DNA of 64,000 nucleotides from Candidatus Parcubacteria bacterium (GTDB taxonomy: Bacteria > Patescibacteriota > Patescibacteriia > Patescibacteriales > UBA12465): assembly GCA_037076615.1 (NCBI GenBank), contig AP029158.1:636299-700298 (forward strand), given 5' to 3'. The notes under the pieces were generated by a model. It saw only the letters and a list, made by a program, of their open reading frames with translations. It was not told the origin of the DNA and did not search any database. Positions 23,529 through 56,534 of this stretch are shown piece by piece. The position numbers and the translations under genes are program-made. Numbering within the stretch: the first letter of the stretch is position 1; each line of letters starts with the position of its first letter.

Positions 23529-26500
23529 ATGAATCTGAGCTCCATTGACAATTTAATTACCGACGAGGAGCCAGAAGAAGGCTCGGCGTTAGATAACTTT
23601 TCTCGAAAACAGAAAGAAATTAAAGCCCGCGAAATTGAACGCGAAGCGGAAAGACAAGCCCGACTACTCGGACTTCCTTATATTAATCTCGGTAGCTTTC
23701 CGATCAGCAGCGACGCCTTAGGTTTAGTAGAAGAAATGAGGGCTCGCGACTTAAACTTAGTTTGCTTTTTTTATGACGGCAAAGATTTTAGATTAGGGAC
23801 GACTAACCCCACGACTGAAGTAAAAGAATTTGCCGAAGAGCTCCAAAAAAAATTATACGCCAATGGAGTATTATTTTTTATCTCTGAAAATAGTTTGCAA
23901 CACGCTCTTGAGCTTTACAAAAACCTGCCGAAAGTTACCCCCTACACCGGCACGGTCGAGATCAGCCCCCAAAAATTAGTAGAGTTCCAAGAAGACTTAG
24001 CTGATTACCGCAAGTTAAACGAGCGCATCAACGAAGTTAACATCAGCGATGTTATTACTTTAATATTGGCGGCTGCCATTCGTTCCGGATCTAGCGATGT
24101 CCACGTTGAGGCGGAAGCTCGCGGCTCGGTTATTCGCCTCCGCATTGATGGCGTTTTGCACGAAGCGGCGGTGATTACTGGTGAGAAGTGGCGACGAATA
24201 GCCACCCGTCTAAAAATTCTTGCTAAGGCAAAAATTAATATCACCAATCAACCTCAGGATGGCCGTTTTAGTGTTCGCCTTGACGACCGTAAACTTGATG
24301 TCCGGTGCTCCTTTTTGCCAACAGCTTTTGGTGAGAGCGTGGTACTGCGCTTACTTGATTCTTCGGCGCAATCTTTATCTTTTGAGCGCCTGGGCTTAAG
24401 AGCAGAAGTTTTAAAAATACTCAAAGCTCAAATCAAAAAACCAAACGGCATGATTTTGACCGCCGGCCCAACTGGTTCCGGAAAAACGACGACTCTTTAT
24501 GCGATTTTAAACGAATTAAATAAACCGAATATAAAGATTATTACTCTAGAAAATCCGATTGAATATCAGTTACCCGGGATTAACCAGAGCCAAATTTCTG
24601 AAGATAAGGGCTATACTTTTGCCGAGGCCTTGCGCTCCGTCTTGCGTCAAGATCCAAATATTTTAATGGTAGGTGAAATCCGCGATTCAGAAACAGCTAA
24701 GATTGCTTTACAATCTTCAATTACTGGCCATTTAGTTTTATCAACCGTACACACCAACGATGCCGCGGGTGTGATTCCGCGCTTATTAGATTTAGAAGTT
24801 GAACCTTATCTACTGCCACCGTCTCTAAACGCCGTTATCGGGCAACGTTTAGTGCGCCGTCTTTGCCCGCACTGCCGCAAGCCTCACAAGTTGAGTAACC
24901 TCGAAAAAGAACAAATTAATAAAATTATTGGGGTCATTTCCCCCAAGTCAGGGGTGAGTGTTCCCGACCAGTTACCTCAACTCTGGAAAGTAGGCGAGGG
25001 GTGCCCGGAATGCAGTTACACCGGCTATCATGGCCGAATTGGAATTTACGAACTATTTACGATGGATGAAAAAATAAAACAGCTCACCATTGATCGGGCC
25101 CCGTCTTTTAAAATTCTCCAACAAGCCATTGAGAACGGAATGATTACCATGCTTCAAGATGGTATTTTAAAGTGCTTTGAAGGTATTACTTCAATTGAAG
25201 AGGTTTACCGTGTGGTCGGTGACTTTGATTATATCAACGAAATTTACGATATCGTTATTTCTCAAACTATTGGTCGCGGTCTAATCATCAAGGAGACGGA
25301 CCTAGCCCAAGCGAGAGAAACCACAATTGATATTAAAGCCCTTTCAGAACAGGTTAAAGTAATCTCACCCCGAGAAATTGTTAATTTAATTATGTCGCTA
25401 GCGATAGTTAAAGACGCGGGCGATGTTCATATTGAGCCCACTGACAATTTAGTTAAAGTTCGCTTCCGAATTGACGGGGTCTTACACGACATCACTAACC
25501 TCCCGAAAACTTCCTATTTACCGGTTCTAGCGGAAATGAAAATTTTAGCCGGTTTTGAAACTAACGTGAAGCGCGCCACTCTTGATGGTCGCTTTAGCTT
25601 ACACCTACCGCAACGAAAAATGGATTGTCGTATTTCGATTATCGCGGGCGGCTATGGAGAAACCATTGTAATTCGTTTATTATCGGCGGCGGCAGTGAGT
25701 CTGGATTTAGAGGAACTGGGCGTTAGCGGCCCTTCTTTTGATTGTTTGACTAAGGCGATGTCGAAGACTAAGGGTATTATTATTACGACCGGACCAACTG
25801 GCTCTGGTAAAACCACGACCCTCTACGCCATTTTGAATAAGTTAAACCGACCTGATATTAAAATTATCACCGTTGAGGATCCGATTGAGTATCAACTACC
25901 AGGAACTATTCAAACCCAGATTGATACCGAACGGGGCTACACTTTTGCCTCGGCTATGCGTTCCTTGTTGCGTCAAAATCCAAACATCATGATGATTGGT
26001 GAAATTCGCGATGCGGAAACAGCCAAAATTGCCATTGAAGCGGCCTCCACTGGCCACTTAGTGCTCTCGACGATTCATGCTAATTCGGCGGCCGGAGCGA
26101 TTTCTCGCTTCTCTGGTTTAGGTGTCGAGCGTCAAGCCCTGGCTAACGCCTTAGAATTTTCTATTGGCCAACGGTTAGTTCGACGGCTTTGTAAGCATTG
26201 CCGCCAACCCGCACACATCGATGAGGAAACACTTAGCCGCGTGCGCAGTATTTTATTACAAGTTAAAAACCCGCGAATTAAAATCCCTCAAGATTTAATA
26301 TTTTATACCGCTCCCGGCTGCGAGCACTGCAACCATATTGGCTATAAAGGAAGAGTAGGAATCTATGAGACTATTACCACCACCCCCACCATTATGAAGC
26401 TGATTCAGGATAACCTCATTACTGATTATGAGATTGAGCAAGCAGCGATTGCCGAAGGAATGGTGCCGATTGTAGTTGATGGTATCTTAAAAGCCTTAGC

Positions 26501-26540
26501 TGGAGAAACCAGTTTAGACGAAATTTTCAGAGTAATTTAA
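23529..26540 (+). CDS. tandem (double-core) GspE/PilB-family secretion/pilus ATPase
   Basis: Two complete cores. Walker A is GPTGSGKTTTLYAIL in both. Walker B regions are DPNILMVGEIRD and NPNIMMIGEIRD. His boxes are GHLVLSTVH and GHLVLSTIH. Each core has a CxxC...CxxC cluster. A T2SS-E N-terminal-like domain occurs only at the very N-terminus. Confidence 0.88.
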   Translation: MNLSSIDNLITDEEPEEGSALDNFSRKQKEIKAREIEREAERQARLLGLPYINLGSFPISSDALGLVEEMRARDLNLVCFFYDGKDFRLGTTNPTTEVKEFAEELQKKLYANGVLFFISENSLQHALELYKNLPKVTPYTGTVEISPQKLVEFQEDLADYRKLNERINEVNISDVITLILAAAIRSGSSDVHVEAEARGSVIRLRIDGVLHEAAVITGEKWRRIATRLKILAKAKINITNQPQDGRFSVRLDDRKLDVRCSFLPTAFGESVVLRLLDSSAQSLSFERLGLRAEVLKILKAQIKKPNGMILTAGPTGSGKTTTLYAILNELNKPNIKIITLENPIEYQLPGINQSQISEDKGYTFAEALRSVLRQDPNILMVGEIRDSETAKIALQSSITGHLVLSTVHTNDAAGVIPRLLDLEVEPYLLPPSLNAVIGQRLVRRLCPHCRKPHKLSNLEKEQINKIIGVISPKSGVSVPDQLPQLWKVGEGCPECSYTGYHGRIGIYELFTMDEKIKQLTIDRAPSFKILQQAIENGMITMLQDGILKCFEGITSIEEVYRVVGDFDYINEIYDIVISQTIGRGLIIKETDLAQARETTIDIKALSEQVKVISPREIVNLIMSLAIVKDAGDVHIEPTDNLVKVRFRIDGVLHDITNLPKTSYLPVLAEMKILAGFETNVKRATLDGRFSLHLPQRKMDCRISIIAGGYGETIVIRLLSAAAVSLDLEELGVSGPSFDCLTKAMSKTKGIIITTGPTGSGKTTTLYAILNKLNRPDIKIITVEDPIEYQLPGTIQTQIDTERGYTFASAMRSLLRQNPNIMMIGEIRDAETAKIAIEAASTGHLVLSTIHANSAAGAISRFSGLGVERQALANALEFSIGQRLVRRLCKHCRQPAHIDEETLSRVRSILLQVKNPRIKIPQDLIFYTAPGCEHCNHIGYKGRVGIYETITTTPTIMKLIQDNLITDYEIEQAAIAEGMVPIVVDGILKALAGETSLDEIFRVI

Positions 26541-38070: not shown

Positions 38071-38628
38071 ATGTTAAGTATCAGCGAAATCAAGCCGGGA
38101 CGAGTGATTAAAGTCAATAATCAGCCCTACGTCGTCACCAAAACCGATCATCATAAAATGGGTCGCGGCGGGGCCGTTTTAAAAACTAAGCTTCGTAACC
38201 TTATTGACGGTCGTGTTCTCGATCAAACCTTTCAAGGGGTTCAGCAAGCCGAAGAAGCAGAAACAGAAACAAAAAAAGCTAACTATCTTTACAAAGATGC
38301 TGAGCAAGTTTTTTTCATGGACAATCAATCGTTTGAGCAATTTAGTTTAGATCTAGAGTCCATTGGCGACCAAGCCAAATTCTTAAAAGATGGCACCGAT
38401 GTCTCCGTTCTCTATTTTGAGGGCAAACCAGTGACCATTGAACTACCAATTAAAATGGAGTTTAAAGTTGTTTCTGCGCCCCCTGGCGTTAAAGGTAATT
38501 CTGCTGGCAACGTTAATAAACAAGTAGAAATTGAAACTGGCGCCACCATCTCCGTACCGATGTTTATCAATGAAGGTGATATTATTAGAATCAATACGGA
38601 AAGCGGCGATTACGTGGAACGCGCTTAA
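38071..38628 (+). CDS. efp: elongation factor P
   Basis: 185 aa; KPGRVIKVNNQPYVV...HHKMGRGGAVLKTKLRNL; three-domain length. Confidence 0.92.
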   Translation: MLSISEIKPGRVIKVNNQPYVVTKTDHHKMGRGGAVLKTKLRNLIDGRVLDQTFQGVQQAEEAETETKKANYLYKDAEQVFFMDNQSFEQFSLDLESIGDQAKFLKDGTDVSVLYFEGKPVTIELPIKMEFKVVSAPPGVKGNSAGNVNKQVEIETGATISVPMFINEGDIIRINTESGDYVERA

Positions 38629-40785: not shown

Positions 40786-40876
40786 GGAGGAGTCGCATAG
40801 CCCGGTTGATTGCGCCGCATTCGAAACGCGGTATACCCGTCAAAAGGTATCAAGGGTTCGAATCCCTTCTCCTCCG
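40786..40876 (+). tRNA. tRNA-Ser (anticodon CGA), class II with long variable arm
   Basis: Acceptor GGAGGAG/CTCCTCC, anticodon loop TTCGAAA (one A-C mismatch closing the stem), variable arm TATACCCGTCAAAAGGTAT, T arm AAGGG-TTCGAAT-CCCTT. Confidence 0.8.
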
Positions 40877-40877
40877 C

Positions 40878-40915
40878 ATATAAAAATACAACCCTTTAGG
40901 GTTGTATTTTTATAT
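40878..40915 (+). terminator. terminator after tRNA-Ser
   Basis: 17-bp perfect hairpin ATATAAAAATACAACCC-TTTA-GGGTTGTATTTTTATAT. Confidence 0.7.
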
Positions 40916-41115
40916 GATGATAATAAGGGTGAGAACCTTTAGGTTCGACTGCCGAGGATAGCGAGCGAAATGAAAACTCGGTTTTCATTTTCGAGCGACA
41001 CAGGCAGAAAAGGGCGGCTTGACCGCCCTGCTATCCCTGCCTCTCCGCAATTGACAAGGGTATGCCAAAATGGTATACCTTTTTGTTAAATGGATCCTTA
41101 AAAAAAATATTAAAA

Positions 41116-41492
41116 ATGAGAAAAGTGATAAACATCATTGCAATTAAAGATAAAAAATTCTTTTAGTAAGAAAAAGGGAGGCTTGGATTTTGCCTGGCGG
41201 CAAACCTAATTTAGGTGAAAGCGACGCAGAATGCCCCCTTAGAGAATTGTCTGAAGAATTGCCAAAATTATCAGTTATTGGAGATTTCAAACTTTATAAA
41301 AGTTTTACCGGTCAAACACCTCATCAAGGTGACATAGTAGAGGCGGTAGCATATTTTAGTAAAATTCAAAGGGAAATAAAGCCAGACAGGGAAATAAGTG
41401 AGGCTTTATGGACAAATAACTTTGATAACATTAAATTATCCGAAATAACTACAAAAATTATTAACCCCCTCTATAAAGATGGGTATCTTTAA
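41116..41492 (+). pseudogene. Nudix hydrolase gene interrupted by a frameshift in an A6 tract
   Basis: ATG at 41116 reads MRKVINIIAIKDKKFF-stop. Shifting one nt at the A-run 41152-41157 continues as KILLVRKREAWILPGGKPNLGESDAECPLRELSEEL, which carries the Nudix box G-x5-E-x7-REUxEE. Confidence 0.7.
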
Positions 41493-41498
41493 TTAATG

Positions 41499-41525
41499 CC
41501 GCTATTTTTAAAATAGCGGTTTTTT
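41499..41525 (+). terminator. terminator after the Nudix gene
   Basis: CCGCTATTTT-TAA-AAATAGCGG followed by TTTTTT. Confidence 0.7.
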
Positions 41526-41534
41526 ATTTTATTG

Positions 41535-41566
41535 AAACCGTTCCAACTATGCCCCACTCTCTCCGC
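41535..41566. repeat. left copy of a 32-bp imperfect direct repeat bracketing the island
   Basis: AAACCGTTCCAACTATGCCCCACTCTCTCCGC versus 47892-47923 AAACCATTCCAACTATGTCCCACCCTCTCCGC (29 of 32 identical by eye). Confidence 0.8.
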
Positions 41567-41786
41567 TAATTTTTATTAACTTCGCACACGCGGAGCGCGT
41601 GGTGGCTCTTTCCTAAGTCATACGCTCCGATTGCGTGGTGAAGCGAACAATGCGCGTCTCGCGCTCCCTTCGGTCGTAAACCAAAACCAAAAACTTTCTT
41701 ACCTATCCATTTTCGGCGGGGGGGGAGCCGCTTAAAAAATGAAAGGAAATCTTTTGGTTTTGTTTTCGTCGCTTCAGCGGTTGTTG

Positions 41787-41815
41787 TTTACAATCGCATA
41801 AAAATTCGTTATGAT
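41787..41815 (+). promoter_or_regulatory. sigma70-like promoter of the xre-ligase-MTase-MTase-peptidase operon
   Basis: TTTACA (41787-41792), 17-nt spacer, TATGAT (41810-41815), 64 nt upstream of the xre ATG. Confidence 0.5.
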
Positions 41816-41878
41816 TTAAATATGGAGATTAAATATTTTATATTATAGTCTATATATTAAATTATACAATAGGAAATT

Positions 41879-42076
41879 ATGAATATTGCAGATAACTTTA
41901 AAAAAATAAGAACAGAAAAGGGATACTCTCTTGAAAAGATCGCTCGTTTTGCTGATTTGTCTCTCAATACGGTTGTTAAAATTCAGAGTGGAGTCAATAA
42001 GAATCCAACCATTGAAACATTATCTAAAATCGCCAAGGCGCTTGGTGTTAGCGTTGGCGATTTGATACAAAAATAG
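41879..42076 (+). CDS. XRE/Cro-C1 family helix-turn-helix transcriptional regulator
   Basis: 65 aa; IRTEKGYSLEKIARFADLSLNTVVKIQSG...PTIETLSKIAKALGVSVGDL. Confidence 0.88.
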   Translation: MNIADNFKKIRTEKGYSLEKIARFADLSLNTVVKIQSGVNKNPTIETLSKIAKALGVSVGDLIQK

Positions 42077-42078
42077 TT

Positions 42079-43197
42079 ATGAAGAAAATAATTTCTGAAA
42101 ATATATTGAAAAATGCACGGAATGATGCAATTGAATTTGTAGAAGCAAATGGTCAAAACAGTTTGTATCCATCATTCTATGATGCAGATAGTTATGTTAA
42201 CGATTTGGTGAATGACAAATATTTTGCCGCACTAGCGATTGTCCGTCACTATGTAAAATTAATGAGTGATGCATACTGGTCAGATTTTGGTGCAGTCAAC
42301 ATAGATCTTTTTATGTTGACCTCAAGCGCCTCATCTCCTATGGGACCAGGATCCGACTCTGAGGTAATAAATATTCAATTTGGTAAATATCAAACCAATC
42401 TCACTGACTCATCACAATTTGGTTTTGAGCCGCTTATGTTTCATCTCGATAAAGCGTACTGTTATTTACCATCTATGCGGGGTGAGAATCCTGACGCTCG
42501 ACACATTAACCAGTTCTTTCATTGTGAAGCGGAAATAACCGGAACACTCGATAAATTGTTGCCGTCTGTTGAGAACTATGTACAGGCACTCGCCAGAATA
42601 TTTATAGCGCTCACACCAGTCGTGAAGCTTATTAGTATAGATTTTTTCAAAACAAAACAGGCGCTACAAAATATTATTAACGCTAAGAGTTTCAATAAAA
42701 AAACTTTTGATGAGGTGTATCAGTGGTTACAAAAAAATCCCTTATTCCACTCGGCAAATAATTTTGGAAGAAATATTACCAGCAGTGGCGAAATAGCGCT
42801 TGCTCAAGAGATGGGAGGTGAGCTACCTATCTGGCTCTGTAATTACGATAGGGATATCACTCCTTTTTACCAAAAACCAGATCCGCAAAATACAAATAGA
42901 GTTATAAATGCGGATCTGTTATTTCCACCAATTATAGAGGGCGGTTTCGGAGGTGAAATCGTTGGTTCTGGGCAACGACAAGATAATCCTGAAGAAATTA
43001 TCGAGTCTCTCAAAAGACAAAAAATCGATAGTGAACCTTATGAGTGGTACATCAATCTCCGCAAACAACCAAACTACAAAATAACATCTGGTTTTGGATT
43101 AGGAATAGAAAGATTTATTGCCTGGGCACTTGGATATTCTGATATTAAAAATGTCATTCATTATCCACGACTTAAAAATATTAAAACACTGCCATAA
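42079..43197 (+). CDS. class IIb aminoacyl-tRNA-synthetase-like ligase (AsnRS/AspRS-type catalytic core, no anticodon-binding domain)
   Basis: Motif 2 PSMRGENPDARHINQFFHCEAE (compare AsnRS FRAE...RHLAEFWMIEPE). Motif 3 GSGQRQ...SGFGLGIERFIAWALGYSDIKNVIHYPR. Only about 45 aa precede the core, so there is no OB fold. Confidence 0.8.
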   Translation: MKKIISENILKNARNDAIEFVEANGQNSLYPSFYDADSYVNDLVNDKYFAALAIVRHYVKLMSDAYWSDFGAVNIDLFMLTSSASSPMGPGSDSEVINIQFGKYQTNLTDSSQFGFEPLMFHLDKAYCYLPSMRGENPDARHINQFFHCEAEITGTLDKLLPSVENYVQALARIFIALTPVVKLISIDFFKTKQALQNIINAKSFNKKTFDEVYQWLQKNPLFHSANNFGRNITSSGEIALAQEMGGELPIWLCNYDRDITPFYQKPDPQNTNRVINADLLFPPIIEGGFGGEIVGSGQRQDNPEEIIESLKRQKIDSEPYEWYINLRKQPNYKITSGFGLGIERFIAWALGYSDIKNVIHYPRLKNIKTLP

Positions 43198-43198
43198 T

Positions 43199-44041
43199 AT
43201 GAAAAAAGAAATTTTCGATTCATTTTTTAATCCGTATGCAAAAACCGTTGACAAGGCGGCTGGCGTTAGCGCATTTTGGCGATTGTCAGATGAAATCATC
43301 ACAGAAATAATTAAACGAGAGATCGCGCCGTATTGTATAGACTTATCGCTTACTATGGACGCTGGTGGCGGCACAGGAAGGTGGGCAATAAAACTAAGTG
43401 GGGTTTTGAAAGGGAAAATTGTTGTATTCGATCGGTCGAAAGATATGTTAGCGAAAGCGTCAGAAAATATTAGTAGGAGTAGCACATCTGATCGCATTAG
43501 CATAGTAGAAGGAGACTTAACGCAGATAAATGAGTTCGCAGACAACAGTGTTGATAATATCGTGAGTATTTATAGCCCGCTTAGTTTTATCTATGAACAA
43601 GATAAGGCCGCAAAAGAATTGTTCCGTATTTTGAAACCAGGCGGTCGCATCCTTATAATGAGTCATAGTTACCATAACGCAGTAGCTTCTAAAATAAATA
43701 ACTATCGAGCTAGCGCAGAAGAATTACAAAAACTTGTAAATGAACAGGTGGTGAAATGGGCGCCACACGTTCCAGAATTAGTGACTCATTCAAAAGAGTC
43801 CATAGAAAAACTTTTTTCTGATGCAGGATTTCATATACATAAAACATACGGTGTGCCCGTGTTTGTCCAGCCTGGTTCAGAAGACTTTGACCCAGAAAAC
43901 GAAAAGAAAAGCGCTGTAAGCGCATACCTTGAAAACCCCGATGTATTTAAATCGGTATTTGAAATTGAAATGAGGTTTAATGCAAACGAAACAGTGGCAA
44001 ATCGAGGTATGAATATGTTTATGCTCGCAGAAAAGAAATAA
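43199..44041 (+). CDS. class I SAM-dependent methyltransferase
   Basis: Motif I MDAGGGTGRWA, LKPGGRILI. The ATG at 43199, one nt after the upstream stop, is preferred over the overlapping 43118 start in the ORF track. Confidence 0.8.
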   Translation: MKKEIFDSFFNPYAKTVDKAAGVSAFWRLSDEIITEIIKREIAPYCIDLSLTMDAGGGTGRWAIKLSGVLKGKIVVFDRSKDMLAKASENISRSSTSDRISIVEGDLTQINEFADNSVDNIVSIYSPLSFIYEQDKAAKELFRILKPGGRILIMSHSYHNAVASKINNYRASAEELQKLVNEQVVKWAPHVPELVTHSKESIEKLFSDAGFHIHKTYGVPVFVQPGSEDFDPENEKKSAVSAYLENPDVFKSVFEIEMRFNANETVANRGMNMFMLAEKK

Positions 44042-44042
44042 T

Positions 44043-44924
44043 ATGAAAAAAGATAAAATTTTAAAAGAATATCCTTGGCTTGCGAAGATAAATACCGTTG
44101 AAGATTACCTTCCTCCAGAGTATTACCAACACTTACTAAAACCATATATTTTTGGCGGAGTGTCAGATATTTCACTGCTTGGTAATTTCTTACATAATAA
44201 AAAACCTTTAAAGGTTCTGGAGCTTGGGTGTGGCAGTGGTAGAGCCTCAGATACTGCGGTTTCGATTATTCCTACTGCAGATTACACTTTTTCAGATCTC
44301 AGTGGCAGAATGCTCGAAGCTGCGAAACAGCATTTGCCCAAAAACTCAGCTTTTGTTATTTCTGATGCGGTTGATTTTATGGAGAACACTAATGATATAT
44401 ATGACTTAGTGTACACACTTTGGAGTTTTTCACATTCAACGCACCAGCATGTTCATCGGTTGGGCATAGAAAAAGCTGAGGATTACATTTCCTCCGTTAT
44501 CAAAAAGTTTATTCGTCAAAACATTACAAAGAATGGATCATTTTTCTTAATACATTTTGACTCACTCTCTCAGGAACAGAGTATTTTAATGAGACAATGG
44601 AAACGAGTATTTCCTACCTTTGCAAATATCGAGGAACAAAGTCCCTCAAAGCAATTCATCGACAGAACTTTATTGGAATTAGATACAAAAGGAGAAATTA
44701 CCCTATCTATCAATCACTTATGTGGTGATGCCATACATTACAAATCAGAAAATGAATTGCTGGAGACTTTTATGAATTTTCATCTTGAGACGTACTTCAA
44801 TAATTCATCACTTAATAAAAGTGTTATTGAGGACATAAAAGAACAAGCCTCAAAGTATCGTAATGAAGATGGTTCTTATGATATTACCCCTGGATGTTAT
44901 GTTTATTCATTTGTTAAAAATTAA
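44043..44924 (+). CDS. class I SAM-dependent methyltransferase (second, divergent)
   Basis: Motif I VLELGCGSGRAS, acidic FSDLS, post-I ISDAVDF; start is one nt after the upstream stop. Confidence 0.75.
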   Translation: MKKDKILKEYPWLAKINTVEDYLPPEYYQHLLKPYIFGGVSDISLLGNFLHNKKPLKVLELGCGSGRASDTAVSIIPTADYTFSDLSGRMLEAAKQHLPKNSAFVISDAVDFMENTNDIYDLVYTLWSFSHSTHQHVHRLGIEKAEDYISSVIKKFIRQNITKNGSFFLIHFDSLSQEQSILMRQWKRVFPTFANIEEQSPSKQFIDRTLLELDTKGEITLSINHLCGDAIHYKSENELLETFMNFHLETYFNNSSLNKSVIEDIKEQASKYRNEDGSYDITPGCYVYSFVKN

Positions 44925-44932
44925 AAAATACT

Positions 44933-45964
44933 ATGAAAAAACTTCAAAAATTGCAGAAAGGAGACAAGGTAGCAGTGTTGTCGCCATCGTTTGCGGCGCC
45001 TGCCATCTTTCCAAAAGTGTTTGAATTGGGGCTCCAGAGAATTCGCGACGAGTTCGGACTGGAGCCAGTGGAGTATCCAACCACAAGACAATTAAACGCA
45101 AGTGCTGAGGACCGCACTCTCGATATCATTGAAGCTTTTTCTGATCCAGAGATAAAAGCCGTAATTGCAAGTATTGGTGGAGATGATCAAGTGACCTATA
45201 TTCACAAAATGTCTCCAGAGGTATTTATAAAAAATCCCAAGCTGTTTTTAGGATACAGTGACAATTCACATCTTTGTAATTTTTTGTTTCAGCATGGAAT
45301 TCCATCGTATTACGGAGCTTGTGTGATGACACAATTTGCAATGCAGGGAGAAATGGACAGATACACGGTGGAAAATATTCGTCACGCTTTGTTTGATTCA
45401 GGCGAATACGAAATTAATCCTTCAAAAGAATATAATGAGATTGGTCTAAATTGGAAAGATGAAACACTGCTTGCAACAAGACGAACCTACGAAAAAAACA
45501 CGGGATGGATATGGGATGCTCCAGTGGACAGCGAAGGTATCTTATGGGGCGGGTGTTTAGAGTCAATTGATGATATGTTGCGTAACAATACACCAATCCC
45601 AAGTCTTAAAGAATTCGGAAATATTATTCTTATGCTCGAAACGTCGGAAGAAATACCTTCGCACGGATATGTGAGGCGAGTCATTCGCGCTTTGGGTGAA
45701 CGATACATATTGCAGAAGGTCCAAGGTATTTTTGTTGGACGGCCGAAAGCGTGGGAATTCGACAAACAATTCACCAAAGAAGAACGAACCATCTACACTA
45801 ATGAGCAACAAAAAACCATTCTTGAAACAGTGCGAACATACAACAAAAATATTCCTGTGGTACAAAATATGAATTTTGGTCATACAGATCCGCAGATACC
45901 AATGCCGTATGGAGGAAGGGTAAGAGTTGACTCAAACAAAAAGAGGGTCTTTGTTTACTTTTAG
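44933..45964 (+). CDS. peptidase S66 family (LD-carboxypeptidase / microcin C7 immunity MccF-like)
   Basis: GDKVAVLSPS N-terminus, nucleophile elbow LGYSDNSHL, MLETSEE, FGHTDP His motif; 343 aa. Confidence 0.8.
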   Translation: MKKLQKLQKGDKVAVLSPSFAAPAIFPKVFELGLQRIRDEFGLEPVEYPTTRQLNASAEDRTLDIIEAFSDPEIKAVIASIGGDDQVTYIHKMSPEVFIKNPKLFLGYSDNSHLCNFLFQHGIPSYYGACVMTQFAMQGEMDRYTVENIRHALFDSGEYEINPSKEYNEIGLNWKDETLLATRRTYEKNTGWIWDAPVDSEGILWGGCLESIDDMLRNNTPIPSLKEFGNIILMLETSEEIPSHGYVRRVIRALGERYILQKVQGIFVGRPKAWEFDKQFTKEERTIYTNEQQKTILETVRTYNKNIPVVQNMNFGHTDPQIPMPYGGRVRVDSNKKRVFVYF

Positions 45965-45966
45965 AA

Positions 45967-45996
45967 AAAGACCAGGAAATTAATTTCCTGGTCTTT
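45967..45996. terminator. bidirectional terminator between the convergent S66 peptidase and HisRS-like genes
   Basis: Perfect 30-nt palindrome AAAGACCAGGAAATT/AATTTCCTGGTCTTT. Confidence 0.75.
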
Positions 45997-47152
45997 AGCA
46001 GTCACCGTCCTTAAACAGTTTCTGCATTAGCTCTGCACCTATTCCAGAGGTAACCATCGCCTCGCGTTTGTTATCGAGTAGTTTCGCAGCCCAATCTACA
46101 GCTCCTCCATCCGCAATCTGAACCACATCGCCTTTTTGGTTGGTGGCAAAAATGTGGAAGCATAGATGCGGATAATAGCCCAACCCAGCTTTTCTATTGA
46201 AGTCAAAGCAGAATCGGACATCAGGATTAGTTGAACGAAGTGGTTTTATAATACCTTGCTCAATGTGCGCAAAGTATCTAACTCGATCAGCGAGACCGTT
46301 ATCCCTGAACATTGTCGGCTTTAGGTCGTCTGCAGTTTCAACTTCTCTTGGAAACTGAACTTGATATTCCGTGAACAAGTCGAAGTCGTCATTAAGTGAA
46401 TTTCGCAAGACATCTTCACGAGAAAGTTTGATCGCTTCTATCAACTGATCAAGGAATCGCATATCAGAAACCTTGACAGTAATGTCTGACGATTTGTACC
46501 CTTCTCTATGTAGGACAGAGATAGTATTCAGCAATGTCGCTATATGTTTCTGCAGCGAAGGAATTGCAAACCCACCCATTTCTGACCTGTTGGGCCCACC
46601 AGAGCAAAGAGCAAAAAGGTTGAAATGTTGCATATACCCCTTGCTCTTGTCGAACGGCTGTAGCCGCAGAACACGACCCGATGTACTAATGTGTATAGCA
46701 CTCTTATCTTTTCGGGTCACATTCCGTTTTCTCCTTAATGAGCACTCTAACGCAAGCTGGCTTGTTAGATCGCTCACAACTTCCGATCCTCGTATCGAGG
46801 AAAGAGTGTTGTTTTGGCTAACCATGCTCAATACTGCGTTGAGACCAAAAGGTGCAATGGGAGAAGTTTGAACGCTCTCGAACGTAGACCGTGTCGCCTC
46901 GTGACATGCGAGGGCAAACTTGTACAGCTCGATTTGAGTTATCGAACTAATCCCGAGAAATTCTTGCCTCCTTTCGTACTCTTGGAGTAGCTCTGCTGGT
47001 TTTCTGACCATCGCCCTATTCTTGAATGCATGCACCAGAATAGGCTGTAGGCGACGCATCGGTGTTGTCGACAGAATCTCAAGGAGGTTGGTCACACCAA
47101 GCTCCTTGGAGATGCTTTGAATCATTTTTTCTTCCGAACTCTTGGAATCCAT
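45995..47152 (-). CDS. class IIa aaRS-like protein (HisRS/HisZ-like core, no anticodon-binding domain)
   Basis: SSIRGSEVVSDLTSQLA (compare LRPEGT...), RVLRLQPFDKSKGYMQHFNLFALCSGG (motif-2-like), GLGYY (compare GLDYY), IADGGAVDW...AMVTSGIGAELM (GGRYD/motif-3-like, Arg absent). Similarity judged by eye only. Confidence 0.45.
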   Translation of the reverse strand: MDSKSSEEKMIQSISKELGVTNLLEILSTTPMRRLQPILVHAFKNRAMVRKPAELLQEYERRQEFLGISSITQIELYKFALACHEATRSTFESVQTSPIAPFGLNAVLSMVSQNNTLSSIRGSEVVSDLTSQLALECSLRRKRNVTRKDKSAIHISTSGRVLRLQPFDKSKGYMQHFNLFALCSGGPNRSEMGGFAIPSLQKHIATLLNTISVLHREGYKSSDITVKVSDMRFLDQLIEAIKLSREDVLRNSLNDDFDLFTEYQVQFPREVETADDLKPTMFRDNGLADRVRYFAHIEQGIIKPLRSTNPDVRFCFDFNRKAGLGYYPHLCFHIFATNQKGDVVQIADGGAVDWAAKLLDNKREAMVTSGIGAELMQKLFKDGDC

Positions 47153-47312: not shown

Positions 47313-47816
47313 TTGGTTAGAAATAATTTAATCAGATCTAGAAGTCCTTGGAAAAAATGGCATTATTCTTTGCCTCGTCCAATATCTGAAAAACTGGGTG
47401 ATTTACTACAAATTGATACAGTTCATTTTTTAACTAGTGATGGTGAAAGATTTTATGTCTATACTATAATTGTTTTATATTCTCGTTGGGCTTATGCTAA
47501 AGTTGTCAAAAAGATAAGTGCTGATAGAAGTGCCCGATTCGTGAAAGAAGCTAAGAGAAAATCATCTTTCAATTTTGAAATGACTCGATCTGATCATGGT
47601 CCAGAATTTAGTTCTTGGTTCACTAATGAATTAATTAGATTAAATATATCTCATAGACATTCTAGAATCAGAAAGTGTAACGACAATGCTCATATTGAAA
47701 GATTTAATCGGACTATTCAGGAAGAATGTTTTGGAATAGATAGACCAGTTAGTTATGATAGATATTTATCTTTAATTAATTATTATCAAGACTATAATAA
47801 GCATAATTTTATTTAA
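47313..47816 (+). mobile_element. 5'-truncated DDE (rve, IS481/IS3-like) transposase remnant
   Basis: Integrase core LQIDTVHF...SDHGPEF...NAHIERFNRTIQEE (D, D, E). The N-terminal HTH domain is missing and the in-frame upstream sequence hits a stop at about 47284. Confidence 0.75.
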
Positions 47817-47891
47817 TATAAGACAAAAAATTTCAGAATAATTAATTTATCTCGAAAAAGCCAATGAAAAATTAAAATTATTATTTGATTA

Positions 47892-47923
47892 AAACCATTC
47901 CAACTATGTCCCACCCTCTCCGC
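47892..47923. repeat. right copy of the 32-bp imperfect direct repeat
   Basis: See 41535-41566; lies about 75 nt after the transposase remnant. Confidence 0.8.
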
Positions 47924-47980: not shown

Positions 47981-48913
47981 ATGAACAATGTGGAAAAGTT
48001 TGAACAGATAAAATCTAGTCATTTAGAAAATCAAGAGTCGTTAAAAAACCTGCAACGGCAACTGCATTTTGATGGTGTTGAATTATTACCCGGACAGGAA
48101 TTTCCTATAAATATTCACGTTCGAAAAGAACCGATTGAAATTAAAGACGGAGATAGTTTAGAATTATTGTCACTTATGGAAGAAGCTGAAAAGTTAGCAG
48201 AATTTCCTGAGGAAGAACGTCTTACGGCTTTAATAGAACTAGTACGCAGTAAACTCAAATACCCATATCCTGATGTTATGGAGGCTTCGGGAGCAGAGAA
48301 TCCTGAATTGAAAGAATGGCTTGAAAAAAGATTTGGGCTAAATCCGAGTATTTGGAAACTTGAACTTAACGATTTACTAAAAAATGGATTTGGCGATTGT
48401 AAGATTATGGCTGCAGCTTATCTTATAGCGGCGCAATCTGCAAAAATTAAAGGTATTTATGCAAATAGCGGAGTCAGTCTTAAAAACATTGTTAGATCTG
48501 ACATCAGCAAGCCGATATTTAAATCGGTAGAACTAGATCGGGATACAAATTCAGCCCACGAATGGGTTAAAATTCAATTATCAGACGGGAGATTGATTCC
48601 AGTCGACCCAACAACCAATATGGTTGGCTTAGGAGAAATGATAGCGGTTTTTAGGCAAGCTGGTTATAACGTTCCAGTTACTTTCAAATCTGAAGTTCCT
48701 TCTGATTTAGAGCTGGAACGCGATGGTGCCGCTTTCGCTCCAGGAGAAACAGAAAAAAGACTGAATTTAAAGTTAAAAATTGGATCAGTAATGAGTTTTG
48801 GTGAGGGCGCATCTACAAAAAGATTGAAAACTGATAAATTTTCTGGAGATGTAGATGTAAAATTTAATTCAAATACAGATTCTAAAAGTACAAACCTTGA
48901 TTTTTTGGATTAA
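47981..48913 (+). CDS. transglutaminase-like cysteine protease fold protein
   Basis: Putative Cys-His-Asp triad in NGFGDCKIMAAAYL ... SAHEWVKIQLSDGRLIPVDPT. Confidence 0.55.
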   Translation: MNNVEKFEQIKSSHLENQESLKNLQRQLHFDGVELLPGQEFPINIHVRKEPIEIKDGDSLELLSLMEEAEKLAEFPEEERLTALIELVRSKLKYPYPDVMEASGAENPELKEWLEKRFGLNPSIWKLELNDLLKNGFGDCKIMAAAYLIAAQSAKIKGIYANSGVSLKNIVRSDISKPIFKSVELDRDTNSAHEWVKIQLSDGRLIPVDPTTNMVGLGEMIAVFRQAGYNVPVTFKSEVPSDLELERDGAAFAPGETEKRLNLKLKIGSVMSFGEGASTKRLKTDKFSGDVDVKFNSNTDSKSTNLDFLD

Positions 48914-54375: not shown

Positions 54376-54921
54376 ATGGCCAGCAACTTTAATTCAACCA
54401 CGACCACCGCCGCTTTTGACAAGCTGTATGCGGATTATATTGAAGCTATTTATAACTTCTTGTTTTATAAAACTTTAAACCGCGAGACGGCCGCTGACTT
54501 AACCCAAGAAGTATTTTTAAAAGCTTGGCGGGGCTTAGAAAAAACTCAAGTTAAAAATCCTAAGGCCTGGCTCTACACTATCAGCCGCCACGCCGTGGCT
54601 GATTACTACAAAAAATTGAAGCCCCAAGCAAATATCGATGACTTCTGGGACTTGGCTGATTCTAACGACCTCTTAGAAAAAATCGATCAGAAATTAGCAG
54701 GAGAGAAAGTTGTTTGGGCTTTAAAAAATTTATCGAGCAGTGACCGCGACCTTCTAATTATGCGCTTTTGGTTGGACTTACCCTTTGCCGAAATCGCGCT
54801 TCACTTAAATAAGAAAGAAGGAGCGGTTAAAATGGCTTGTGTGCGCGCCCTTAAAAAAATGCAAGCCGAAGTGCCGCTTATTTGCTTCTTGCTCTTAGCG
54901 ACCCAACTATCAAATCTATGA
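54376..54921 (+). CDS. ECF-type RNA polymerase sigma factor
   Basis: Region 2 (DLTQEVFLKAW) and region 4 (LPFAEIALHLNKKEGAVKMACVRALKKM). Confidence 0.88.
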   Translation: MASNFNSTTTTAAFDKLYADYIEAIYNFLFYKTLNRETAADLTQEVFLKAWRGLEKTQVKNPKAWLYTISRHAVADYYKKLKPQANIDDFWDLADSNDLLEKIDQKLAGEKVVWALKNLSSSDRDLLIMRFWLDLPFAEIALHLNKKEGAVKMACVRALKKMQAEVPLICFLLLATQLSNL

Positions 54922-56534
54922 CTACAAAAAAAATAAGCCAGTGGTTGGAAGAATTATATGAATTTGACCCAAGCCTAAAAGAACACGAAACGGCTTTACG
55001 CCAATTAATCCCTCAAATGATTGCCGCTAAGCCTGAATCTGGTTTTAGCCCTGAATTAGCTCAACAAATTAAAACTCGCCTCGAGCGGGATCTTAAAAAA
55101 CTTAATTATAAATCTATGCCCGAGAAAAGACTGCCTATTTGGCGACCAATCTTAGTTTGGTCAACCGGGGTAATGGCGATGCTATTTTTAGCCATCACTA
55201 TCTACCAAATTGTGCCTAGCGATAACATTCAGCGAGCACAAAAAAGTCCAGAAAACGGAATTAAGAAAGTAGCCGCCGCCGCTTTTGGCCCCTTAAACTC
55301 CCAAGGGGTTGGCGTTAATGAATCAAGGACCGCTGCCGGTTTAGGTGGCGGTGCTAATAATGTTAACCAAAGCGTCACAATGACAAAAGAGTTATCAATC
55401 ACCGCCTCTGATTCCTCAGTTAGTACAACGGTTTCTGTTGACACTTTAGAAGCGGACACCTTAGCTCCAGTGAATGCCGTAGGGATGGGCGGTGATGGCA
55501 CAGAATTTGTCCAAGAAAAAATGGTAATTATGCCGATTACTAATTACCGCTTTAGCTACCAAGGCGAACCTTTGGACTTAAGTAATATTAGTAATACTGT
55601 TTATAAGCGCCTCAAAAGCCAAAATGGTTTTGCTGTCGCTAGCTTGCTCAGCGGTCTAGCAATTGATGCTGTTAATTTAAGCTCTTTCAGTAATCTTAAA
55701 GCTACTTATGTCTCTTTAGCTGAAGATAAACCCTTTGGTTTAACCGCTTCCTTTGATTTTAATGAAGATTCCGTTTCCCTTTATTCAAATTGGGAAAAAT
55801 GGCAGAACCCTGAAAGAGAGAACTGCCAGGACCAAGCCTGTTGGGACCGCTTCCGAGTTAGATATGAAGACATCCCGGAAGATTCGGTCGCTATCGCTGC
55901 TACTAATGAATTCTTGAGTAATCTTGGCATTGATCTTAATCGTTATGGCCAGCCGAGTGTTAATAATTACTGGCGCCAGTGGTACGATCAAGCTGAGGAT
56001 AAGGCTAATTATTATTTTTCAGAAACAGTAAGCGTCACCTACCCTCTATTGATTGAGGGGCAAGAGGTGAGTGGATCATCTGGTGAACCTGATGGTCTTT
56101 GGGTTAGTTACAATATTTTAGAAAAGCGAGTTTCTGATGCTGGTGCTTTTACTCCCTATAATTACGAAGCTTCGGAATACACAACCGAGACTAGCACCGA
56201 CCGTCTAATTGGCTTAGCTGAAGCCGGCGGCTGGAATCAATATGGTTATTACTTTAACGAAGGCATGGAAGGTGTAGAGGTGGTTAATAAGGAATTAGGC
56301 TTAGGCACTCCCCGCCAAGGGCTGATTCGTTTCTGGAGCTACCAAAATAATGTCAGCCAAGAATTATTTGCCCCGGCTTTAATCTTCCCCGTTCTTGATG
56401 CTCCGGCCGATTACTATGGCTCAAAAAATATTATTGTCCCTCTAACTCAAGATCTGATTAATGAGTTAGAACAAAGAAACAATCAAAATAATGTGGGAAT
56501 AATGTCGACGTCAGTAAGTGCTTTTGCTCGCTAA
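54918..56534 (+). CDS. single-pass membrane protein coupled to the ECF sigma gene (possible anti-sigma factor)
   Basis: ATGA start/stop overlap with the sigma gene; short cytoplasmic N-terminus, one TM (ILVWSTGVMAMLFLAITIY), large external domain. Confidence 0.45.
   Translation: MTTKKISQWLEELYEFDPSLKEHETALRQLIPQMIAAKPESGFSPELAQQIKTRLERDLKKLNYKSMPEKRLPIWRPILVWSTGVMAMLFLAITIYQIVPSDNIQRAQKSPENGIKKVAAAAFGPLNSQGVGVNESRTAAGLGGGANNVNQSVTMTKELSITASDSSVSTTVSVDTLEADTLAPVNAVGMGGDGTEFVQEKMVIMPITNYRFSYQGEPLDLSNISNTVYKRLKSQNGFAVASLLSGLAIDAVNLSSFSNLKATYVSLAEDKPFGLTASFDFNEDSVSLYSNWEKWQNPERENCQDQACWDRFRVRYEDIPEDSVAIAATNEFLSNLGIDLNRYGQPSVNNYWRQWYDQAEDKANYYFSETVSVTYPLLIEGQEVSGSSGEPDGLWVSYNILEKRVSDAGAFTPYNYEASEYTTETSTDRLIGLAEAGGWNQYGYYFNEGMEGVEVVNKELGLGTPRQGLIRFWSYQNNVSQELFAPALIFPVLDAPADYYGSKNIIVPLTQDLINELEQRNNQNNVGIMSTSVSAFAR

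Follow-up and report, generated by a model that had tools for sequence, protein, structure and literature searches.

A putative aminoacyl-nucleotide cassette with an AgnA-type ligase and an MccF-type peptidase on an accessory island of a Candidatus Parcubacteria bacterium

The kind of system considered here is already known from agrocin 84 and microcin C (McC), the toxic moiety of the former and the processed form of the latter being N-acyl phosphoramidate nucleotides, i.e., non-hydrolysable mimics of aminoacyl-adenylates. On plasmid pAgK84 of Rhizobium rhizogenes K84, agnA ('Agrocin84-synthetase') is followed by the gene of an S-adenosylmethionine (SAM) methyltransferase (AgnB1) and then by agnB2, which encodes a resistant leucyl-tRNA synthetase (LeuRS); the agnC operon includes agnC5 for an 'MccF-like protein', and two NUDIX genes and an ABC transporter lie near the agn genes. 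AgnA was proposed to join a pentanamide precursor to AMP via a phosphoramide bond, AgnC1 is remotely similar to prolyl-tRNA synthetase (ProRS), and agrocin 84 production requires a chromosomal S-adenosylhomocysteine hydrolase (PMC8323819). The mcc operon of Escherichia coli comprises genes for the ThiF-type MccB, the major facilitator superfamily (MFS) pump MccC, MccD, MccE and the convergently encoded MccF, and the aminopropyl group on the phosphoramidate of McC is installed by MccD plus MccE1 (PMC8323819). Here we compare with these clusters a six-gene cassette found in a 64,000-nucleotide stretch (below, the window) of a Candidatus Parcubacteria genome, i.e., of a bacterium of the candidate phyla radiation (CPR; GenBank assembly GCA_037076615.1, contig AP029158.1, positions 636,299 to 700,298).

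The cassette includes five open reading frames (ORFs) of the plus strand at 41879-45964, separated by gaps of 2, 1, 1 and 8 nt, which encode an XRE/Cro-type regulator, an AgnA-family ligase, two SAM methyltransferases (MT1 and MT2) and an S66 peptidase, and a sixth, convergent gene for a protein of the fold of histidyl-tRNA synthetase (HisRS) or HisZ. The initial annotation of the locus, made from its sequence alone, had described the five-gene unit and overlooked the sixth gene; its gene spacing was reproduced by the ORF calls, and its domain assignments were borne out by the profile searches, which detected HTH_3, a tRNA-synt_2 core, a class I SAM methyltransferase in each of MT1 and MT2, and both the N- and the C-terminal domain of S66. 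Its statement that no described cluster had such a composition does not hold, as pAgK84 carries agnA, the adjacent SAM methyltransferase gene, agnC5 and the NUDIX genes. The idea of an aminoacyl-nucleotide biosynthesis or immunity module, in turn, received strong comparative support, as the genes are homologous to those of agrocin 84 and microcin C. Judging by sequence comparison, we consider it fairly probable that the six-gene mobile cassette is a compact CPR variant of clusters of the agrocin 84 and McC kind, making an N-acyl-phosphoramidate-type aminoacyl-nucleotide; the product most likely would be a poison of tRNA synthetases, accompanied by protection against it. This reading is supported by the homologies, including conserved catalytic motifs, by gene linkage across phyla, by extra synthetases and pumps present in clusters elsewhere, and by the mobility of the cassette.

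The AgnA-type ligase and the MccF-type peptidase

A search of plasmid proteins with the ligase (42079-43197, plus strand) matched AgnA of pAgK84; in the pairwise comparison the identity was 30% over 336 aa (E 1.6e-44), the two proteins sharing an N-terminal extension, which is helical and about 90 aa long in the window protein, and the SSPMGxGSDS (SSPMGPGSDS) motif. Residues 42-365 of the ligase correspond to Pfam tRNA-synt_2 (8e-25), with no match to tRNA_anti-codon, and the matches to models of asparaginyl-tRNA synthetase (AsnRS) begin at about model position 127, which indicates that the N-terminal anticodon-binding domain is absent and leaves an AsnRS-type class IIb core. The best PDB sequence match was to AsnRS (2e-27), and the best Foldseek matches were to AsnRS catalytic domains (1e-18). 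Throughout 19 members of the ligase family the residues R134, E136, R141, H142, F146, E150, E152, D279, E293, Q299, R300 and G338-R345, which make up the class II motif 2/3 set, are invariant, so that the adenylation site looks intact. By comparison with structures of AsnRS and aspartyl-tRNA synthetase (AspRS), the ligase presumably has no Lys at the position of AspRS K198 and retains the motif-2 Glu and the 'QR' arginine; the AsnRS 'QRE' would correspond to 'QRQ' in the window ligase, and we take an AsnRS-like pocket as a lead. The amide nitrogen could then come from an Asn-type substrate, in the manner of MccB chemistry.

An alternative explanation is one from primary metabolism, in which the ligase is a tRNA-independent asparagine synthetase of the AsnA/AS-AR type and the S66 protein an LD-carboxypeptidase that recycles cell-wall peptides; their linkage would reflect the salvage of amino acids or peptidoglycan by a CPR cell that is auxotrophic. 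Dependence on salvage is a general trait of CPR bacteria, the S66 Pfam domains carry the name of LD-carboxypeptidase, and the NCBI annotation pipeline (PGAP) labels several ligase homologues asparagine synthetase A, the NCBIfam models of that name giving the window ligase 74-132 bits. These scores, however, are far below the family cut-offs (NF005055, 132 bits against 389), as are those with the AsnRS models TIGR00457 (158 bits against 342.6) and NF003037 (159 bits against 414), and the PDB structure of archaeal asparagine synthetase A (AsnA, 3p8t) was matched at 2.6e-7 over residues 245-368 only, that is, over the C-terminal third. Salvage also leaves unexplained the linked copies of LeuRS and of alanyl- and glutamyl-tRNA synthetases (AlaRS and GluRS), the pumps and the MccD/MccE-like genes of related clusters, and it accords poorly with a patchily distributed cassette located on an island and on plasmids. 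This explanation is therefore considered improbable. Identity of the ligase as a housekeeping AsnRS or asparagine synthetase was rejected on the family cut-offs, the context and the patchy distribution. Thus, the window ligase has the class IIb catalytic fold and the AsnRS-type active-site motifs in common with canonical AsnRS and the archaeal asparagine synthetase A (AS-AR), but differs from them in its scores, in the missing anticodon-binding domain, in a wholly different genomic context, and in the family-specific extension and motif that it has in common with AgnA. The database entry identical to it is annotated as 'amino acid--tRNA ligase-related protein'.

The S66 serine peptidase (44933-45964, plus strand), which possesses both the N- and C-terminal S66 domains of Pfam, falls on the MccF side of the family, into the Ba3275 subtype. 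Its PDB matches are headed by Bacillus anthracis Ba3275 (1.7e-50), followed by MccF proteins at about 1e-20. The triad S109/E236/H317 aligns with S118/E243/H311 of MccF, and the MccF-type loop is present, with W174 aligned to the adenine-stacking W186 of MccF. LdcA of E. coli lacks about 35 residues of the loop, yet MAFFT places one of its Trp residues in the W186 column, so that the Trp alone does not discriminate between MccF and LdcA. The BLAST scores were 84.7 bits against MccF and 42 bits against E. coli LdcA, the score with the LdcA equivalog NF008424 was 40.6 bits at a cut-off of 378, and all S66 proteins of the clusters scored higher with MccF than with E. coli LdcA. The identity as a murein LdcA was rejected on these grounds, which also count against the salvage explanation and agree with the grouping that the initial annotation had supposed. 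MccF N220 and K247, which we assume to contact Asp, occupy positions that are not conserved in the window protein.

Three S66 subtypes occur in the clusters: the Ba3275-like one in the window and 13 loci; a BA_5613/Lmo1638-like one in clusters with an AlaRS-like gene (E 1e-107 to a solved structure); and an MccF/AgnC5-like one with E. coli MccF as the best PDB match (1e-53). All of them keep the triad, except for the protein of locus L063 with Asp at the Glu position, and the MccF-type loop with a Trp aligned to W186 is present in all. As these non-orthologous subtypes are swapped within the cassette, what selection maintains seems to be the presence of an MccF-type hydrolase, whatever its subtype.

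Gene clusters around AgnA-type ligases

The scan for the ligase family covered one genome per species (185,579 species) and yielded about 100 relatives, of which 80 loci were kept; neighbouring genes were counted by tblastn with the window proteins (first count) and by all-against-all clustering of ORFs (wider count). The relatives come nearly all from metagenome-assembled genomes of Patescibacteria, a few bearing implausible taxon labels, and one is located on plasmid 2 of Calothrix parasitica NIES-267; on viral contigs the family is absent. Of the 80 loci, 72-74 have an S66 peptidase and 71 a SAM methyltransferase beside the ligase. A HisRS-like gene was found next to it in 26 loci, a gene of about 370 aa resembling the N-terminal part of AlaRS in 23-24, and a full-length gene similar to lysyl-tRNA synthetase (LysRS) in 7, a second class II synthetase-like gene of one of these types being present in about 55 loci. 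The order of the ligase (LIG), methyltransferase (MT) and other genes varies, e.g., LIG-MT-S66-HisRS-like (convergent), HD-MT-AlaRS-like-S66-LIG and MT-HisRS-like-S66-LIG; with such shuffling it is the co-occurrence and not an inherited synteny that is conserved, which argues for selection on co-occurrence. The neighbour-joining tree of the ligases, which carries no support values, does not sort by the type of the second gene and gives a hint of module swapping. Less frequent companions are HD phosphohydrolases (10 loci), APH-type kinases (8), ABC exporter-like proteins (6), SAM decarboxylases (AdoMetDC, 4), pyridoxal phosphate (PLP)-dependent decarboxylases of the Orn/DAP type (3), radical SAM proteins (3) and NUDIX hydrolases (3; L022, L040 and L056).

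The complete architecture of the window (LIG-MT1-MT2-Ba3275-type S66-convergent HisRS-like) recurs in L001, L006 and L008-L011 at 65-95% identity, and L005 and L007 show the gene set of the window as far as their contigs extend; the set of MT1, MT2 and S66 is complete in L001 and L006-L011. The linkage of the ligase clade with S66 and methyltransferase genes and the co-conservation of the gene set in other genomes, on which the initial annotation had made its proposal depend, are thus both observed. L003 is among the closest relatives of the window (ligase 79% and XRE regulator 72% identical). The XRE/Cro-type regulator of the window (41879-42076, plus strand; 65 aa; Pfam HTH_3 3.4e-12) has counterparts of 34-74% identity upstream of the ligase in L001, L003, L005, L007 and L020, directly 5' of it in the first four and about 3.6 kb upstream in L020.

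Outside the CPR, clusters of this family were found on plasmids. The plasmid of Xenorhabdus bovienii CS03 carries LIG-MT-S66-nucleoside phosphorylase-VOC-GloA-leuS-class IIa-core protein-MFS, and a plasmid of Peribacillus psychrosaccharolyticus the genes of an ATP-grasp protein, an MFS transporter, a 595-aa AlaRS, an AlaRS-related protein, MT, LIG and S66. Bacillus sp. Leaf75 and B. pseudomycoides pBTZ_2 share a set of aminotransferase, S66, MccD-like MT, LIG, ATP-grasp and GluRS (gltX) genes, together with orthologues of MT2 (42%) and of the HisRS-like protein (41%), an MFS transporter and ahcY; the adenosylhomocysteinase gene ahcY of pBTZ_2 (L091:13220-14527) lies near the ligase-methyltransferase pair. 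The closest non-CPR relative of the window ligase (52% identical) is encoded in the S66-LIG-HAD-MT set of symbiosis-type plasmids of Bradyrhizobium elkanii (L085); that set is situated about 800 bp from nodU between insertion sequence elements, with no second synthetase-like gene annotated. On Pantoea agglomerans plasmids (L089:8599-11110) the ligase homologue (427 aa) occurs as a fusion with part of a GNAT acetyltransferase, and the gene of an MFS transporter follows directly; no S66 or methyltransferase gene is annotated within the fetched 9 kb on each side, and the locus looks like a minimal two-gene variant. The clusters of Bacillus, Peribacillus and Xenorhabdus, for which no description was found in the searchable papers, resemble that of the window in the ligase, the adjacent methyltransferase, the S66 peptidase and a second class II core, but contain in addition an extra synthetase (GluRS, AlaRS or LeuRS) and an MFS pump, as well as genes for ATP-grasp ligases, a nucleoside phosphorylase, an aminotransferase and a PP-loop ATPase.

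The likeness to the agrocin 84 cluster extends from the homologous AsnRS-core ligase without an anticodon domain, the adjacent SAM methyltransferase and the MccF-like S66 protein (AgnC5; 25% identity, E 7e-30 to the window S66) to a second, remote class II synthetase-like protein (AgnC1 in agrocin 84) and NUDIX genes, the agn cluster being plasmid-borne. The window differs in the host, a CPR bacterium, and lacks the resistant synthetase (AgnB2), the pump (AgnG), the tailoring genes agnC2-C7/D/E/F and the sugar-phosphate part; moreover, its second gene has the HisRS fold with no detectable similarity to AgnC1, and its MT1 is not of the AgnB1/MccD type. Neither an exporter nor a spare synthetase is encoded in or next to the cassette (the window does contain genes for ValRS, ArgRS and PheRS, but these are distant and of the housekeeping kind), so that production and self-resistance look incomplete in comparison with the plasmid clusters.

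This incompleteness suits an immunity-only explanation, according to which the CPR cell makes no inhibitor, and the S66 peptidase, the methyltransferases and ligase-like binders neutralise mimics of aminoacyl-adenylates that neighbours or hosts produce. It is in line with the lack of an exporter, a resistant synthetase and a precursor in the window (for the precursor, short MccA-like ORFs were not searched exhaustively), with the free swapping of S66 subtypes among clusters, and with the frequent occurrence of MccF homologues as stand-alone resistance genes (PMC8323819). On the other hand, every locus retains an ATP-dependent ligase whose adenylation site is apparently intact; as in biosynthetic clusters, the core is accompanied by pumps, ATP-grasp ligases, aminotransferases and additional synthetases; and the tailoring genes for MccD-like enzymes, PLP decarboxylase and AdoMetDC suit synthesis rather than detoxification. 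We regard pure immunity as unlikely.

MT1 (43199-44041, plus strand) is a class I SAM-dependent methyltransferase of UbiE/CmoM-like appearance in the Pfam, NCBIfam and PDB searches; its start was placed at ATG 43199, from which the homologues align, instead of TTG 43118, to which the ORF lister had extended it. MT2 (44043-44924, plus strand) is a second enzyme of this class with weak BioC/Tam-like matches, and the PDB matches of both are generic only. MT2 is 42% identical to a methyltransferase of Bacillus sp. Leaf75, whose gene overlaps the HisRS-like gene there, and no match to MT1 was found on plasmids by tblastn at 1e-10. Homology to MccD over the full length (E 1e-20 to 1e-28) was found for AgnB1 and for the methyltransferases encoded next to the ligase in Xenorhabdus, Peribacillus and Bacillus, and a hidden Markov model (HMM) built of them recognized MccD-type methyltransferases in 20 CPR loci at 209-307 bits; MT1 scored 35 bits, over the SAM-binding core only, and MT2 is not among the matches listed for this search. 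MccD-type methyltransferases, to which the initial annotation had referred as decorating enzymes, occur in sister and plasmid clusters. MT1 fills the ligase-adjacent slot that MccD/AgnB1-type enzymes hold elsewhere, and decoration in the window would likelier consist in methylation, MT1 and MT2 holding that slot.

A connection to microcin C is also seen in other CPR loci. In L003, L044 and L051 the gene order is LIG, MccD-like MT, S66, PLP decarboxylase and convergent HisRS-like gene, the decarboxylase resembling the N-terminal domain of MccE (27% identity, 2e-16), and AdoMetDC genes stand beside an MccD-type methyltransferase gene in L022, L027 and L056, but in L002 the methyltransferase that accompanies AdoMetDC is an MT1 like that of the window. 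That an aminopropyl donor could be reached by either of two routes encoded next to the ligase points to the same kind of decoration as in McC for these sister clusters. The window itself shares with the mcc operon the MccF-type S66 peptidase with its conserved triad and loop, encoded, like MccF, convergently to presumed biosynthetic genes, whereas the MccD-like and MccE-N-like genes are carried by the sister CPR loci, and MT1 is no MccD homologue. No ThiF-type MccB, MccC pump or GNAT protein was seen among the cassette ORFs, and no MccA peptide was seen in the cassette, short MccA-like ORFs not having been searched exhaustively; with this limit on the precursor, the locus is indeed no canonical microcin C system, as had been proposed from the missing MccB/ThiF-like enzyme and exporter. 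The candidate for the nucleotide-forming enzyme in the window is a class II synthetase core and not an E1-like MccB.

The second synthetase-like core and the proposed product

The sixth gene of the cassette (45995-47152, minus strand) encodes a 385-aa class II synthetase-like protein, consisting of a catalytic domain only, which was identified by fold search alone, as its family profile found no match among PDB sequences and the members of the family are all annotated as 'hypothetical'. The AlphaFold model, obtained from 32 sequences with a pLDDT of 89.8, matched HisRS catalytic domains and HisZ in Foldseek (E 7.5e-16 to 1e-13, TM 0.55-0.7, identity 12-16%), and the score with Pfam tRNA-synt_His was 19.1 bits, below the cut-off of 25. 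The family retains R160, R163 and Q165 of motif 2, the HisA-like R320..G-Y-Y and the DGG motif; its motif 3 reads SGxGxEL, with Leu in place of the usual Arg. Hence, the protein is like HisZ and HisRS in its predicted fold and the R..GYY and DGG motifs, but unlike them in the missing motif-3 Arg and anticodon domain, in the sub-threshold Pfam score and in its neighbourhood, no hisG being seen in the window region. It is a member of the cassette, being located inside the island and co-occurring with the operon elsewhere.

HisRS-like and AlaRS-like genes are mutually exclusive across the loci. Their treatment as one family was rejected, as the hhalign match was only of motif-2 size and had a probability of 4%, and neither family matched AgnC1. 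The AlaRS-like family scored 24 bits (Calothrix member) and 75 bits (Peribacillus homologue) with Pfam tRNA-synt_2c. A match to the HisRS-like gene on a Chroococcidiopsis plasmid has no cluster context. In Parcubacteria bacterium OLB19 (L015:9931-12009, minus strand) an in-frame ORF of 692 aa joins an AlaRS-like part (29-359) to an S66 part (370-692); it is either a real fusion coupling the two functions or the result of a stop codon lost in assembly. In L033:11069-13779, L052:10964-13773, L072:11005-12327, L013:2622-3935 and L064:41-1030, LIG-MT-S66 is flanked by one or two full-length LysRS-like genes of class IIb with OB domains, one divergent (157 bits with tRNA-synt_2) and one standard (257 bits); a role as the variable second enzyme or as an additional copy for resistance is conceivable.

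The presence of two synthetase-like cores together with methyltransferases resembles modification pathways, and truncated synthetase paralogues are known to modify macromolecules, as do EpmA/PoxA, acting on elongation factor P (EF-P), and GluQRS, acting on tRNA. Accordingly, the ligase might aminoacylate a protein, a tRNA nucleoside or a cofactor, with the methyltransferases finishing the modification and the S66 peptidase removing it; an EF-P gene is located at 38071-38628, about 3.5 kb upstream. In other loci, however, neither EF-P nor the remaining neighbours are conserved beside the ligase, the cassette moves between genomes and is found on plasmids, and the resistance-type synthetases, the pumps and the homology to AgnA, AgnC5, MccD and MccF point to a small-molecule antibiotic, which makes modification of a macromolecule or cofactor improbable. 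This explanation, pure immunity and primary metabolism all appear weaker than that of an agrocin 84/McC-kind cluster.

Within such a cluster the AgnA-type ligase would activate an Asn- or Asp-like substrate with ATP and build the acyl-N-P-nucleoside linkage, while the second class II core (HisRS-like here; AlaRS-, LysRS- or ProRS-like elsewhere) would bind or attach a variable amino-acid-like part. MT1 and MT2 would decorate the product; in sister clusters this slot is held by MccD-like genes and those of PLP decarboxylase or AdoMetDC, whose counterparts lead to the aminopropyl group in McC. The MccF-type S66 hydrolase would cleave the acyl-N(P) bond, either for protection of the producer or as a processing step. 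Substrates, product, order of steps and target are what we infer from the homologies; this applies to an Asp/Asn-derived product in particular, since the extra LeuRS, AlaRS and GluRS copies of related clusters indicate targets other than those of Asp or Asn.

Several points weigh against this proposal. The agrocin 84 pathway itself was given as unknown in a 2021 review (PMC8323819). The ligase is only 30% identical to AgnA, and its structural model is of low confidence across the conserved core at residues 80-145. MT1 is not MccD-type by the HMM, the HisRS-like protein may be non-catalytic as its motif-3 arginine is absent, and an exporter and an extra synthetase are missing at the window cassette. 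Finally, the type of the second core agrees with that of the extra synthetase only in Peribacillus (Ala with Ala); they disagree in Bacillus (HisRS-like with GluRS) as well as in the agn and Xenorhabdus clusters (class IIa-like with LeuRS).

A more specific, modular and peptide-independent route can be outlined, to which we assign a low though appreciable probability. The ligase would convert asparagine with two ATP to isoasparaginyl-AMP by MccB-like succinimide chemistry on a class II fold; the S66 enzyme, acting biosynthetically, would release adenosine-5'-phosphoramidate; and the interchangeable second core would re-acylate the NH2 group with the amino-acid-like substrate for which it is specific, so that the corresponding aminoacyl-adenylate is mimicked by a compound that cannot be hydrolysed. 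Such a route would explain why the ligase, S66 and SAM enzymes are constant while the second core and the resistance synthetase vary. The constant core, the pairing of AlaRS-like protein and AlaRS in Peribacillus and the AlaRS-like-S66 ORF of L015 fit it; biosynthetic and immunity domains can also be fused in MccE. If true, it would explain the formation of the P-N bond of agrocin 84 and provide CPR episymbionts with a chemical weapon.

Literature searches found neither a cluster of AsnRS-like, S66 and methyltransferase genes nor a CPR version of it. To judge by the searchable literature, it is new that the AgnA/S66/SAM-enzyme family is so broad and present in about 100 species, most of them Patescibacteria, that its second class II core is interchangeable, and that AgnA-type ligases are combined with homologues of MccD, MccE and MccF. 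The AgnA-type ligase, the SAM enzyme and the MccF-like hydrolase hence belong to a far larger modular family than agrocin 84 alone, represented also in cultured bacteria, on plasmids of Bacillus, Peribacillus, Xenorhabdus, Bradyrhizobium and Calothrix, and the agrocin and microcin C toolkits are connected in it, since homologues of MccD, MccE-N and MccF have an AgnA-type ligase as their neighbour where mcc has MccB. From the additional copies of LeuRS, AlaRS and GluRS one would expect new inhibitors that act on several synthetases, and cassettes of three to six genes are small enough for reconstitution, which makes the question of the P-N bond directly testable. Limited biosynthetic capacity is ascribed to CPR bacteria in a passage of PMC12102498; in such bacteria the cassettes would be candidates for antibiotic clusters of compact size, with implications for the dealings of episymbionts with their hosts and competitors.

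The island and its surroundings

The cassette is an accessory island, as is evident from direct repeats, a transposase remnant, a nearby tRNA gene and a lower GC content. Two 46-nt direct repeats, 87% identical (41521-41566 and 47878-47923, both read on the plus strand), enclose the operon, the convergent HisRS-like gene and an integrase-core transposase remnant (47313-47816, plus strand; Pfam rve 4.7e-11), so that the repeat-bracketed island with a transposase remnant, reported in the initial annotation, is confirmed. The block was also said to be more AT-rich than its flanks, which is correct in direction (GC 0.35-0.38 against 0.40-0.45), but the difference is modest. On the 5' side, the gene of tRNA-Ser(CGA) (40786-40877, plus strand; detected by ARAGORN, Rfam tRNA 46.8 bits) lies upstream of the cassette and is a likely insertion landmark; no other Rfam match was obtained over the island. 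A 32-nt inverted repeat with 84% complementarity at 40864-40929 overlaps the 3' end of this tRNA gene and may be a terminator or the remnant of an attachment site.

Transcription of the operon may start at TTTACA-17-TATGAT (41787-41815, plus strand), 64 nt 5' of the XRE start codon. The 'good' promoter claimed for it is present as a motif with a 10/12 match, but the number of such sites in the region (21, with 16.9+/-4.2 expected from shuffled sequence) shows no enrichment, and so it is plausible by position only. At the other end, direct reading confirmed the perfect 30-nt palindrome AAAGACCAGGAAATT/AATTTCCTGGTCTTT (45967-45996), which separates the stop codons of the S66 and the convergent HisRS-like genes; from this position it would serve both genes, as a putative bidirectional terminator.

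A truncated NUDIX hydrolase ORF of 100 aa (41190-41492, plus strand; Pfam NUDIX 7.6e-6, profile positions 33-113 only) lies outside the left repeat, from which it is set off by a clean terminator at 41498-41520. Its membership in the cassette is uncertain; possibly it is what remains, in truncated form, of a NUDIX gene like those on pAgK84 and in L022, L040 and L056. Between the left repeat and the promoter-like site, the stretch 41560-41745 is GC-rich, which is unusual for this genome, and is associated with short inverted repeats (41678-41698 and 41746-41766); no Rfam match and no ORF explaining it were found there. Just past the right-hand repeat starts an ORF of 310 aa (47981-48913) with no Pfam or NCBIfam matches, and farther on an ORF of 550 aa (54882-56534) gave no match in the Pfam scan, the only one made of it. 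Upstream in the window, positions 23529-26540 encode a 1003-aa protein with two T2SSE matches, an unusually long and apparently duplicated secretion or pilus ATPase.

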